A DNA stretch of 64,000 nt from positions 154,773 to 218,772 of IMG/VR virus record IMGVR_UViG_3300037851_000671. One strand, written 5' to 3'. Source of the stretch: a virus. Its lineage: Duplodnaviria; Caudoviricetes. Positions within the stretch are counted from its first letter, which is position 1. Each line of letters starts with the position of its first letter. The notes below the pieces were generated by a model. The model was not told the origin of the DNA, did not search any database, and saw only the letters and a program-made list of their open reading frames with translations. Position numbers and translations under genes: made by a program. Shown here piece by piece: positions 47,696 through 62,401 of this stretch.

Positions 47696-48415
47696 TCATT
47701 CCTCTATGGCTAATAGATGATCTCCAATATAGTTATGATTCAAAGAGAATTCAGGAATTTCAAAATCTTCCTTTATTCCATCGCCCTTGCAGAATTTCAC
47801 ACACCATCCAACCTTCTGCCATGTAGGCATCGGCCCTCGGTGAATTCCTTTATCAGCTAACATCTGAACCATTTCTGCCTGGTTTTTCTTGTGTAATTCT
47901 TTATGAGAGAAATGTTTTTGAGCAAGGCTTGATATACCATTTCTAATAGCATCTTTCTGACGCCATACAAAATAGTTATTCACTTCTTCTTTTGGTAATA
48001 CAAAAGCTCTTGAATCAAATGTTGCAATTTTCTTGTGAGCTTTGTTGAGTTGCAACATGGCGTGATTGAAAGCAGCTGTAGCGATACTTGCGCTCACGCT
48101 CACAATTTTCTGTAGGCTCTTGTCAAACCAAGCCTGTGTACTGAATGTTTCGTAGTCATTGATAAGAATACTGATCTCGTCTGACTGTATGTAAGCTACT
48201 TTTGCACCGCTTATATTCTTGATTAGTGTTTTTGCTGCCTCGGTCATTGCCTTGTGCATTGTTGGATCGAAAGGCTTATCCAGACCTCTTGTGTAGGTGT
48301 GGAAATGGCATCCGTCCAAACGAATAATTAGCGGCGTTCTTGGGGTCAAATGAATCCTTGGAATGTTTTCGTAGGATTTCATTCTGTTTCCAAGGCTATC
48401 TTTTTCGGGTTTCAT
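47696..48415 (-). CDS. thg1: tRNA-His guanylyltransferase Thg1-like protein
   Basis: 'LGNRMKSYE', 'IIRLDGCHFHTYT', 'YIQSDEISIL', 'FDSRAF', 'WRQKDAIRN'. Confidence 0.92.
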   Translation of the reverse strand: MKPEKDSLGNRMKSYENIPRIHLTPRTPLIIRLDGCHFHTYTRGLDKPFDPTMHKAMTEAAKTLIKNISGAKVAYIQSDEISILINDYETFSTQAWFDKSLQKIVSVSASIATAAFNHAMLQLNKAHKKIATFDSRAFVLPKEEVNNYFVWRQKDAIRNGISSLAQKHFSHKELHKKNQAEMVQMLADKGIHRGPMPTWQKVGWCVKFCKGDGIKEDFEIPEFSLNHNYIGDHLLAIEE

Positions 48416-60364: not shown

Positions 60365-60446
60365 TGCAGATAGTGGGTCTCGAACCCACATGTCCTTAAG
60401 GACTCTACGCTCTGAACGTAGTGCGTTTGCTTTTCGCCATATCTGC
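60365..60446 (-). tRNA. tRNA-Leu(CAG)
   Basis: loop TTCAGAG, long variable arm. Confidence 0.88.
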
Positions 60447-60636
60447 AAAAACCGGGGCTGCTCTATCCATTGAGCTAATCAACTTGTATTCAAACATTTC
60501 TTCGAACGGCACCTTCGCAAAGTGATATCCCTTTGCACTCCAGGCTTTAGCTTTCGCGTAACGTTGAGAGGAAATTGCCTTTGCAGGACTGTCATACATG
60601 TTGATATTGGATTCGAACCAATAACCAACCCCTTAG
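60447..60636 (-). ncRNA. circularly permuted tRNA-like RNA P1 with ~125-nt insert at the acceptor end
   Basis: GGGGT-TGGTT-ATTGG-TTCGAAT-CCAAT-ATCAAC-[insert]-GTTGAT-TA-GCTC..GAGC-A-GCCCC. Confidence 0.75.
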
Positions 60637-60680
60637 GGTGACCAGTTGGTACCGCCCCAACTACGACAGAGCCACAATCT
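60637..60680 (-). tRNA. 3' half of split tRNA-His(GTG)
   Basis: AGATTGTGGC-TCTG, T-arm GTTGG-GGCGGTA-CCAAC, acceptor strand TGGTCAC, C73. Confidence 0.75.
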
Positions 60681-61155
60681 GCCCGCTCACTTCTTGCGTT
60701 TGGTCACATTTAAACTGACGTGCTAGTTTATGTACATGGAACCTTGTGATCCCATAAACCTTACTGATTGATACTGCACTTTCTCCATTTTTGTACCTTT
60801 CAACAATTTCTGTTTTCACATTTGGTTTTAGTGTTTTTCTTACAGGGTTGTAACTATTGATAGCTAGATTTATTTGCTCTTTTCTTCTTAGTCCCATGTG
60901 AGGTTGAAGCTCTTTCATAAGAACCACAGCCCTACCTCCTTTAAGTGCTGTGGCATATGGTGTTTTGTGATGTGCCTTTTGCTTTTTACACTTGCGATAA
61001 GTAGAGCCAAAAAGCATAGCAGCTTTTGCAACAACATCTTCATCAGTCATCATCAATGTAATAGCTGGGCAATTTGGCCTGCTTGGTGGTGATTTTAGAA
61101 AAGAACCCTCACCTTCTAAAAGCCCTGCAAGCCAAATCAAATCGTATTCTTTCAT
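60661..61155 (-). mobile_element. LAGLIDADG homing endonuclease inserted in tRNA-His
   Basis: 'IWLAGLLEGEGSF', C-terminal HTH; last codons read through the tRNA-His anticodon arm. Confidence 0.88.
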
Positions 61156-61195
61156 GAATAATCATATATCAAGCTCAACGACTTATTACAACTGG

Positions 61196-61233
61196 GCCAC
61201 AATCTAGTGCCTTAACCATTAGGCTACGATCAC
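61196..61233 (-). tRNA. 5' half of split tRNA-His(GTG)
   Basis: GTGATCG-TA-GCCT-AATGGTTA-AGGC-A-CTAGA-TTGTGGC; acceptor strand pairs 7/7 (with GU) with 60638-60644. Confidence 0.8.
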
Positions 61234-61235
61234 AG

Positions 61236-61317
61236 TGCTCATGAAGGGATTCGAACCCCCAAGCCCGAAGGCGGCAGTATTTGAAGCTGCTGTGTATACC
61301 AGTTCCACCACATGAGC
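61236..61317 (-). tRNA. tRNA-Leu(CAA)
   Basis: Leu-type D-arm and variable arm; loop TTCAAAT; C31-A39 mismatch. Confidence 0.8.
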
Positions 61318-61336
61318 GTAAGTTTCTGTATCTTTG

Positions 61337-61417
61337 TAGCACCGAAGGGATTTGAACCCCCACGCCCGAAGGCATCAGCTCCTAAGGCTGACGTGTCTGC
61401 CGTTCCACCACGGTGCC
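61337..61417 (-). tRNA. tRNA-Leu(TAG)
   Basis: loop CTTAGGA, variable arm. Confidence 0.9.
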
Positions 61418-61459: not shown

Positions 61460-62401
61460 ATGAACCTAGAGAAGTATATCGTGTTACACGGCAGCCCTAT
61501 CAAGCTGCCCAAGCCTCATGCAGATTTTGTTGACTTTTACTACAACAACATGATGCATGATAAGAAGTTCGGAGTTATCCATATGCGAAAGGCCAGACAG
61601 GTTGGTTTTACCAGTTTGAGTCATGGGCTTTCGTTAGCTTTGGCCATGGAAGAGGTTGTTAGGGTTTATCACCTTCATCCTACTATGGCTATGGCAGCAC
61701 AGTCAGCTCAAAAAATAAACGATATGATTCTTGATGCCCCAAGAGGAATGACCAAGAAGCGCAATGGCCTTCTAAAATCTGTCATTGAAGAAAAGTTGAA
61801 ATGGGGTCCTCAATGCGATACCAAAACCAGAAAAGAGTTTGAGAATGGAAGCTCAATCCTAACAGAGTCAACTGGGAACAATGCCTGCCGTTTGAGGGGA
61901 GGAAGCTGTGACATTTCTTTTTTCCATGAGTCACAGCGCATGGAGCCAGAAGCTATGAGGAACGCAAGTCATCTTTCATCCCATTCACAATTCGGTGTGC
62001 TTGGTCTTGGTGTTCAGACTTATATGTTCACACCACAAGAGGAAGATGATTATTCCGATCATATGTGGAAAGATTCAGACCAGAGGAGGTTCCACTACAG
62101 GTGCGAGAACTGCTCCTGTATGTTCCCAATCATGCAAAGCAATTTCCGTGAGATTTGGTTGTATGGATTTACCATCCGTTGTCCAGAATGTCACAGAGAG
62201 CAGGACAAGAGAAACGCCATGAAACGCGGAGAGTGGATAGCTACAGCAACCGAGTCACATGTTGCTGGATTCCATATGGACCAGTCTACCATGGAGTTTT
62301 TTAGCCGTGAGTCAATTGATGCGTGCTATAATGACAGAACCATGACGGAAAGGAATATCGCTAATGAAGTATGGGGAGAGTCTTTTCCGAAAGAACAGTA
62401 A
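61460..62401 (+). CDS. terminase large subunit (GpA-like) ATPase-domain protein, nuclease domain absent
   Basis: 'MRKARQVGFTS', 'RLRGGSCDISFFHE', Zn ribbon 'CENC..CPEC', 'VAGFHM'; start at MNLEKY. Confidence 0.65.
   Translation: MNLEKYIVLHGSPIKLPKPHADFVDFYYNNMMHDKKFGVIHMRKARQVGFTSLSHGLSLALAMEEVVRVYHLHPTMAMAAQSAQKINDMILDAPRGMTKKRNGLLKSVIEEKLKWGPQCDTKTRKEFENGSSILTESTGNNACRLRGGSCDISFFHESQRMEPEAMRNASHLSSHSQFGVLGLGVQTYMFTPQEEDDYSDHMWKDSDQRRFHYRCENCSCMFPIMQSNFREIWLYGFTIRCPECHREQDKRNAMKRGEWIATATESHVAGFHMDQSTMEFFSRESIDACYNDRTMTERNIANEVWGESFPKEQ

Follow-up and report, generated by a model that had tools for sequence, protein, structure and literature searches.

A free-standing LAGLIDADG endonuclease gene between two tRNA-His-derived genes in a phage tRNA array

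The last 64 kb of a linear 218,772-bp phage contig in IMG/VR (record IMGVR_UViG_3300037851_000671; we refer to this whole 64,000-nt stretch as the window) contain a LAGLIDADG homing-endonuclease gene flanked on both sides by sequence resembling parts of a histidine tRNA gene. This arrangement was originally read as a single tRNA-His gene split into two halves by the endonuclease gene. Here we find that the locus is not an interrupted gene. The endonuclease gene lies between a disabled tRNA-His upstream, which we call copy A, and a complete tRNA-His cloverleaf downstream, copy B, the first part of which is encoded within the end of the endonuclease open reading frame (ORF). We consider it probable that the locus is best accounted for as a free-standing gene for a LAGLIDADG endonuclease with a helix-turn-helix (HTH) domain, set between two tRNA-His-derived genes by an event of the 'overwrite and replace' kind. 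The origin that this implies, in which a cassette overwrote the resident tRNA-His gene and brought or kept a replacement, is proposed by analogy with known mobile endonucleases and is held more tentatively.

Results

An endonuclease gene between two tRNA-His copies

As originally described, the sequence from 60680 to 60637 on the minus strand comprises an anticodon loop, the 3' strand of its stem, a 4-nt variable loop, a 5-bp T stem and a 3' acceptor strand followed by C73. Its reading as the 3' half of a split gene fails, because it lies within a complete cloverleaf that has an acceptor stem of its own. The 5' acceptor strand, GTGACCA, sits in the endonuclease ORF 17 nt upstream of the anticodon stem and forms seven of seven Watson-Crick pairs with TGGTCAC. 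Next come AA, a D hairpin of 3 bp, a 5-bp anticodon stem containing one G-T pair, the loop TTGTGGC, the variable loop and the T stem, giving a total of 20 stem pairs with no mismatch and a correctly placed GTG anticodon. C73 is present, position -1 is T and CCA is not encoded. The GCAGA/TCTGT anticodon stem formed within the last codons of the ORF had already been recognized and is confirmed; in all, the first 47 nt of copy B are the last codons of the endonuclease gene, whose TAG stop codon (60663-60661) falls in the variable loop. Both the minimum free energy (MFE) structure and the centroid structure of copy B are the cloverleaf. An alternative version of copy B, lacking a D-arm and starting at GTGAGCG, was dropped once GTGACCA, 17 nt further upstream, was recognized as the true 5' strand.

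ARAGORN in permissive mode over-calls tRNA genes, with 17-27 calls per 2 kb, and is unreliable alone. We therefore ran a strict cloverleaf scan, with shuffles, across both strands of the 219-kb contig, allowing no stem mismatch and requiring standard loop sizes and U33. The scan recovered 13 loci, namely 12 tRNAs already known from ARAGORN and copy B, with no loci on the plus strand and none in 10 shuffled genomes.

Copy A begins 1 nt after the neighbouring tRNA-Leu(CAA) gene. The region previously called the 5' half (61233 to 61196) does contain the 5' strand of an acceptor stem, a 4-bp D-arm and the 5' side of an anticodon stem with a GTG loop. In detail, the acceptor strand GTGATCG is followed by T8, a 4-bp D stem and a GG-containing D-loop, which together make a canonical D-arm region. 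The anticodon arm has the 5' strand CTAGA, the loop TTGTGGC and the 3' strand CCAGT, which is mismatched to CTAGA. Beyond a 10-mer that it has in common with copy B, copy A runs into CCAGTTGTA, corresponding to the 3' anticodon strand and the variable loop, and the T-arm is absent. The Rfam tRNA model gives a weak full-length alignment here (61233 to 61157; 16.5 bits, E = 1.9). Copy A is most aptly viewed as a tRNA-His that has been disabled: its 5' two-thirds remain canonical and its 3' third is ruined. The leader that separates it from the ORF may, on weak evidence, be its decayed T-arm and 3' acceptor strand, as TGATTAT (61164-61158) can pair with GTGATCG using three G-T pairs. The proposal that an insertion killed the tRNA gene thus survives in one part, in that an endonuclease-linked event left copy A disabled, but not in the other, given the complete copy B downstream.

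Two further observations had been used to join the flanking sequences into one gene, and both are correct as observations. First, the 5' acceptor strand of copy A pairs with the 3' acceptor strand of copy B at seven of seven positions. Five of these pairs are Watson-Crick and two are G-T, compared with seven Watson-Crick pairs within copy B, making the 5' strand of copy B itself the better partner. Second, the 10-mer AGATTGTGGC occurs at both junctions, as a direct repeat with its copies 525 bp apart. It is found exactly twice in the 64 kb, where ~0.16 occurrences are expected and 1 of 100 shuffles reaches two. The same 10-mer is matched at 9 of 10 positions in tRNA-His sequences of unrelated phages (those at loci L018 and L001, the latter a fragment; loci of endonuclease homologues are numbered with the prefix L), so it is not the target-site duplication it was taken for. 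Compared across these sequences, AGATTGTGGC is the conserved tRNA-His anticodon stem and loop, common to copies A and B, which are ~60% alike outside it. Features of the locus are listed in Table 1.

Table 1. Positions of features at the locus and of the Thg1-family gene, numbered within the window
Feature	Position	Strand	Basis or remark
tRNA-Leu(CAA)	61235..61317	-	Upstream neighbour of copy A in the same-strand tRNA array
Copy A, 5' two-thirds of tRNA-His(GTG)	61187..61233	-	Direct reading of the sequence
10-mer AGATTGTGGC, upstream copy	61205-61196	-	Positions 29-38 of copy A
Leader, copy A to ORF start	61156..61186	-	GATATAT motif in common with the L001 leader
Free-standing homing-endonuclease gene, 164 aa	60661..61155	-	ORF call, PHROG match, fold
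Copy B, complete cloverleaf tRNA-His(GTG)	60707->60637	-	Permissive ARAGORN, fold, strict scan
10-mer AGATTGTGGC, downstream copy	60680-60671	-	Positions 29-38 of copy B
Thg1-family gene (tRNA-His guanylyltransferase)	~47696..48415	-	PF04446, 115.8 bits, E = 1.9e-34, above the curated cut-off

The endonuclease resembles I-CreI

The ORF, present as a single copy in the contig, is predicted from its sequence and modelled structure to encode a homodimeric-type LAGLIDADG endonuclease that resembles I-CreI and carries an additional HTH. It contains one LAGLIDADG motif (LAGLLEGEGSF, residues 9-19) with the conserved acidic residue at its end. In an alignment of 30 homologues, W8, L9, G11-G17 and F19 are invariant, giving the motif W-L-x-G-L-L-E-G-E-G, and the family also has a conserved MTDED block and a C-terminal HTH. 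The protein matches PHROG 5046 (E = 1.8e-20) and has 179 homologues, some with PF14528, and the family profile matches I-HjeMI and I-AniI at E ~1e-4.

An AlphaFold2 model of high confidence (pLDDT, the predicted local distance difference test score, of 91) has the topology of a LAGLIDADG half-domain followed by three C-terminal helices. Its elements are a helix (residues 3-16), two strands (17-20 and 31-36), a helix (39-49), two further strands (53-55 and 67-72) and a helix (73-86), corresponding to an alpha-beta-beta-alpha-beta-beta-alpha core. The top Foldseek matches are the homodimeric enzymes I-CvuI, I-CreI and I-MsoI, each at a probability of 1.00. The I-CreI-like core thus spans residues 1-100 and is followed by the HTH; the C-terminal 16 residues are not part of the core conserved in the family and represent read-through into copy B.

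Homologues of the endonuclease lie beside tRNA genes

To place the locus among its relatives, we compared 72 distinct loci that encode homologues. Seventeen of the 72 are in tRNA arrays. In 14 loci, a tRNA gene on the same strand ends just upstream of the endonuclease gene, with tRNA-His the commonest neighbour: a complete tRNA-His gene lies directly upstream in L007, L018, L019 and L093. Other upstream neighbours are tRNAs for Asp, Ala, Asn, Gly, Ser and Phe and, in L005, a phage transfer-messenger RNA (tmRNA). At the other end, the ORF overlaps the next tRNA by 1-51 nt in six loci.

Two of these loci show further associations with RNA genes. In L005 (2076-2995, on a 176-kb contig), a 164-aa homologue lies 34 nt downstream of the tmRNA gene (RF00023, 62.8 bits), indicating that the family also associates with tRNA-like genes other than tRNAs. 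In L019 (~1414-1560), the LAGLIDADG motif starts only 20 nt after the end of the complete tRNA-His gene, and the N-terminal codons of that endonuclease must therefore overlap the 3' end of the tRNA.

The closest homologue, found in L001, L003 and L006, is 50% identical to the endonuclease described here and is encoded in the same layout. The order there is a 5' fragment of tRNA-His ending in CAGTTGT, as copy A does, then a leader with GATATAT, the ORF and a complete tRNA-His. That downstream tRNA-His overlaps the stop codon of the ORF, scores 28.1 bits with the tRNA model and is called as tRNA-His by ARAGORN at -ps95. In L001, the acceptor strand of the fragment cannot pair with the downstream tRNA, which excludes a conserved split-gene design.

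Exact-pattern scans of IMG/VR and JGI contigs found no close relative of the locus itself (one chance match fell in a coding region), and locus searches with single proteins were empty. Likewise, no joint across the endonuclease gene was present in the contigs of four public runs, where the runs other than the probable source run yielded only short pieces, with pond and freshwater runs sharing 61209-61388 and 60541-60640. In a different pond metagenome, one contig of 151 nt matches 60541-60640 at 96% identity and continues with 48 nt unlike the window from 60641 on. The position of this break coincides with copy B's 3' end, which gives a hint of a possible cassette edge in a near relative.

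A proposed course of events and its weak points

The proposed 'overwrite and replace' origin would run as follows. By analogy with SegB, a mobile endonuclease of the T4 tRNA cluster, the enzyme would cut the tRNA-His region of phages that have no endonuclease gene, and repair of the double-strand break would then bring in the endonuclease gene along with tRNA sequence from its flanks. What remained of the canonical tRNA-His previously resident there would be a relic, copy A, whereas copy B would travel with the endonuclease gene or survive beside it and be functional, or at least maintained. Any phage tRNA-His made from the locus would be copy B, with neither RNA splicing nor DNA excision needed. 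Copy B would be matured by RNase P and would receive its G-1, opposite C73, from the phage Thg1. Excising copy B from the transcript would also remove the stop codon of the endonuclease gene, so that tRNA processing might limit expression of the endonuclease. Taken as a proposal about origin in particular, this is a tentative possibility.

Several observations weigh against the account. Copy B is non-canonical, having A8, a D-loop without GG and the T-loop GGCGGTA. Among the 13 strict cloverleaves of this phage, it alone is without T8, a D-loop GG and a TTCRA T-loop; equally, the nucleotides conserved for tertiary contacts (U8, G18-G19 and T54-Psi55-C56-A58) are found in 12 of the 12 others and are missing from copy B. 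ARAGORN in bacterial mode makes no call on the 54-nt core of copy B at thresholds down to -ps80, and copy B is not among the Rfam tRNA matches at E <= 10. As it shows none of the signatures U8, GG and TΨC, copy B is only a putative functional tRNA, and it may be a tRNA mimic or a non-functional copy. The idea that altered T-loops confer self-immunity found no significant support: they occur in 6 of 23 endonuclease-adjacent tRNAs (26%) versus 18 of 125 (14%; p = 0.21). No endonuclease-free allele, or empty site, was recovered from the contigs searched, and cleavage in the tRNA-His region is predicted by analogy with SegB. With copies A and B only ~60% alike, a single genome does not decide which was resident and which was imported.

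Other features argue that copy B is maintained. U33, the GUG anticodon, G37 and C73 are all kept. Although at least six loop positions that are normally invariant have changed, all stem pairs are kept as well, a pattern that neutral decay would not give. The same build, combining A8 or G8 with a D stem of 3 bp and a T-loop that follows the pattern NNCGNNA, sometimes without GG, is found in tRNAs of related arrays that ARAGORN does call (tRNA-Phe in L011 and L041, tRNA-His in L007), so that copy B is not simply a product of random decay. On balance, the sequence leads us to lean slightly towards copy B being a working, non-canonical tRNA-His.

Sites at which we observed this build are copy B, the L011 tRNA-Phe (just upstream of the endonuclease gene there), L007 at 1391-1466, the L041 tRNA-Phe, tRNA-Gly(TCC) in L001 and tRNA-Glu(TTC) in L019. 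The T-loops in these giant-phage arrays include ATCGTAA, ATCGTTA, AGCGTTA, TGCGATA and GGCGGTA in place of the usual TTCRA, and the stems are intact. The recurring build may represent an alternative 'elbow' between the D- and T-loops.

The Thg1-family gene bears on the same question. The original prediction noted that the phage encodes Thg1, and the PF04446 match on the minus strand bears this out. Position -1 is T, not G, in both copies (60708 and 61234), as it also is in the tRNA-His genes of L007 and L018, and position 73 is C. As neither copy encodes G-1, Thg1 is relevant to the locus, and the sequence suggests a phage-encoded addition of G-1 to a phage tRNA-His. In bacterial systems G-1 is encoded in the genome, and a phage-encoded addition would be unusual there.

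The alternative that survives best is that neither copy decodes. Copy A would be a relic and copy B a tRNA-shaped RNA with another role, such as a processing signal for the endonuclease mRNA or a tRNA mimic comparable to the many Y-RNA-like ones of this phage, or with none, and the host, or the half of the phage genome missing from the contig, would supply working tRNA-His. Copy B keeps every stem and has neither U8, G18-G19 nor T54-Psi55-A58, which suggests selection on shape rather than on the tRNA elbow, and the Rfam tRNA model does not score it. A permuted tRNA-like RNA, described below, starts right after it. The sequenced part of the genome also leaves room for another tRNA-His: the contig is ~51% complete according to CheckV, and the tRNA array extends to its end. 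ARAGORN calls no tRNA-His anywhere in the 218,772-bp contig, and the earlier statement that this is the only tRNA-His thus holds for the contig and not necessarily for the phage. Against a non-decoding copy B stand the same build in several isotypes of related arrays, an anticodon loop intact at U33, GUG and G37 together with C73, and the retention by the phage of Thg1, which needs a tRNA-His without an encoded G-1. We judge this alternative to be rather unlikely.

The main alternative for the origin involves no foreign cassette. In this scenario, a unit of tRNA-His plus endonuclease gene was duplicated in tandem, as in the SegB system of T6, one endonuclease copy was then lost and the upstream tRNA-His decayed. 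SegB does generate tandem units of tRNA-Tyr and truncated segB through microhomology shared by the tRNA's 5' end and segB's 3' end (PMC13096335). The 3' end of the ORF is here fused into the 5' end of a tRNA, and four related lineages have a complete tRNA-His immediately upstream of their endonuclease gene. A recent duplicate would, however, not be expected to differ as copies A and B do, one with a canonical and the other with a non-canonical D-arm and the two ~60% alike, and the contig holds a single endonuclease copy. A tandem origin seems improbable to us.

An extended form of the 'overwrite and replace' account would make the endonuclease gene and copy B one mobile cassette, which breaks the canonical tRNA-His of competitors and installs a re-coded tRNA-His immune to the enzyme, with Thg1 aiding the new tRNA and the stop codon within it throttling the nuclease. 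This fuller scheme is speculative and, taken whole, unlikely.

Splicing and excision are not supported as explanations of the locus

A true split tRNA-His would consist of the 5' part of copy A and the 3' part of copy B as exons, with the 525 nt between the anticodon loops removed from the RNA by a protein-mediated or a ribozyme route. Some features would suit such a gene. The joined sequence is called as tRNA-His by ARAGORN at -ps95 and has a cloverleaf as its MFE structure, although a tRNA-like fold is expected from any two copies of one isotype and the joined fold does not discriminate between readings. Copy A has a canonical D-arm, which copy B does not; the 5' anticodon strand of copy A pairs at four of five positions with the 3' strand of copy B, better than with its own; and the phage encodes Thg1. 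A potential long-range helix of 11 bp with one bulge, between GUGGCCCAGUUG in the loop region of copy A (61191-61202) and CAACUGGUCAC at the 3' end of copy B (60638-60648), is part of the MFE fold of the whole region.

The remaining evidence runs the other way. Within what would be the intron, copy B already possesses a D hairpin and a 5' strand that pairs perfectly, and in L001 the fragment and the downstream tRNA are unpairable. L001 does not preserve the long-range helix, folding of the region as a whole reaches a z-score of only -0.9, and the helix is probably a by-product of the self-similarity of tRNA-His. As the original prediction had it, there is no group I core: searches of 6 kb around the locus and of a 701-nt close-up gave no Rfam match at E <= 10 to a group I or group II intron or to a self-cleaving ribozyme (RF00028 was absent), P3-P9 is missing and only ~40 nt lie outside the ORF. 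Group I splicing needs a U before the 5' splice site and a G as the last base of the intron. Inside an exact repeat these two positions are the same base, which makes the rule impossible to satisfy there, and the edges of the repeat give U/C and C/C.

Removal by protein-mediated splicing, which had been offered as one way to rescue the gene, finds no support either. A bulge-helix-bulge (BHB) motif, with its outer helix, 4-bp central helix and inner helix, could be formed at none of the 11 equivalent junction registers. The splicing endonuclease EndA, RtcB and an Rnl2-type ligase (searched as PF01974, PF01139 and PF09414) were not found in this half-complete contig. ARAGORN allowing introns of up to 1000 nt returned no interrupted tRNA-His and, at -ps90, only two implausible calls. 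We regard a split tRNA-His gene as very improbable. Least credible of all is restoration at the DNA level, in which recombination between the exact 10-bp direct repeats, 525 bp apart, would delete the endonuclease gene and recreate a joined tRNA-His in part of the population, because efficient recombination would hardly be expected from repeats as short as 10 bp, the T-loop of the product would still be the non-canonical one of copy B and the repeat is already accounted for by conservation of tRNA-His.

Genomic context

The contig contains 31 tRNA genes called by ARAGORN, all on the minus strand in one same-strand array. On that strand the order at the locus is tRNA-Leu(CAA), copy A, the endonuclease gene, copy B and the permuted tRNA-like RNA. 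No noteworthy promoter or terminator emerged from a consensus scan. Midway through the array but on the opposite strand, an ORF (61562-62401, plus strand) matches the gpA-type terminase ATPase domain (PF05876, E = 5.5e-08). Its length, ~280-349 aa, is less than expected of a large terminase, and it represents a terminase fragment.

The permuted tRNA-like RNA follows copy B directly (60447-60636, minus strand) and ends just before tRNA-Leu(CAG). It begins with an anticodon 3' strand and a canonical T-arm (60630-60605), continues with ATCAAC and an insert of ~125 nt, and closes with GTTGAT, a D-arm and GCCCC; the ATCAAC/GTTGAT pairing and the D-arm were checked by eye on the sequence. The T-arm at 60605-60630 had been considered as the lost 3' part of copy A and was rejected, since it pairs with GTTGAT near 60481 in the permuted RNA. 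A 64-aa ORF at 60405-60599, inside this RNA, is probably not a gene.

Discussion

The closest parallel to this locus is SegB of phages T4 and T6. In the tRNA cluster of T4, the SegB site includes a tRNA T-loop motif, and the enzyme carries neighbouring tRNA genes into phages that have no endonuclease gene (PMC2330249). In T6, microhomology linking the tRNA 5' end to the segB 3' end gives rise to tandem units of tRNA-Tyr and a C-terminally altered or truncated segB (PMC13096335). Both systems are free-standing endonuclease genes in phage tRNA arrays, with the DNA of tRNA genes as the target, by analogy in the present case; SegB spreads with neighbouring tRNA genes and can duplicate tRNAs with the 3' end of the endonuclease gene recombined onto the 5' end of a tRNA. 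They also differ. SegB is a GIY-YIG enzyme, whereas the enzyme described here has an unrelated fold, LAGLIDADG plus HTH, and would home as SegB does. Here, unlike at SegB, two diverged copies of one isotype flank the gene, one of them disabled, and the ORF and the downstream tRNA overlap by 47 nt.

In structure, the enzyme is closest to I-CreI, I-CvuI, I-MsoI and I-CeuI, with which it has in common a single LAGLIDADG motif, the conserved acidic residues and the core fold, and among which its best structural matches are found. The genes for those enzymes reside in group I introns that interrupt 23S rRNA genes. The gene described here is intron-less and lies among tRNA genes, and its product has an extra C-terminal HTH and an identity to that group of only 13-18%.

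Three other known arrangements resemble the locus in part. Archaeal tRNA introns spliced by proteins are often located beside the anticodon, and introns of archaea can harbour LAGLIDADG genes. Unlike archaeal BHB introns and split tRNAs, the present locus has no BHB geometry, no EndA or RtcB in the contig and a bacteriophage setting with a gpA-type terminase. In mitochondria, insertions of free-standing endonuclease genes, for example in Allomyces atp6, bring a substitute gene end and leave the displaced original as a relic. The present locus is similar in being an intron-less insertion with a substitute copy and a relic; it differs in that the cargo is a whole tRNA and the relic lies upstream. 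Finally, group I introns in the anticodon loops of bacterial tRNAs are known from tRNA-Leu(UAA) and from tRNA-fMet, the latter with I-Ssp6803I (PMC3984707). These similarly place an endonuclease ORF between tRNA-like 5' and 3' parts, with the break in the region of the anticodon loop, but here there are no ribozyme core, only ~40 non-coding nucleotides, no bases that satisfy the splice rule, and a downstream part that is a whole tRNA.

Collectively, these comparisons remove an apparent exception, as the locus is not a protein-spliced or otherwise novel bacteriophage tRNA intron. An apparent 'split gene' can instead be two tandem paralogues bracketing a selfish gene. In our interpretation, the locus is a variation on the SegB-type lifestyle, by which a second nuclease family, the I-CreI-like LAGLIDADG-HTH endonucleases, lives in phage tRNA arrays; these endonucleases show a preference for tRNA-His and tight overlaps with neighbouring tRNAs. 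The most intriguing loose end is the unusual build of copy B, with perfect stems and none of the usual nucleotides for tertiary contacts, in a phage that encodes its own Thg1. If tRNAs of this type work, they would bear on phage translation under host defences that target tRNAs and on the escape of endonuclease-linked tRNAs from self-cleavage. Should the endonuclease gene and copy B indeed form one mobile cassette, copy B would represent a so far undescribed class of working alternative-elbow tRNAs that recurs in the tRNA arrays of giant phages.

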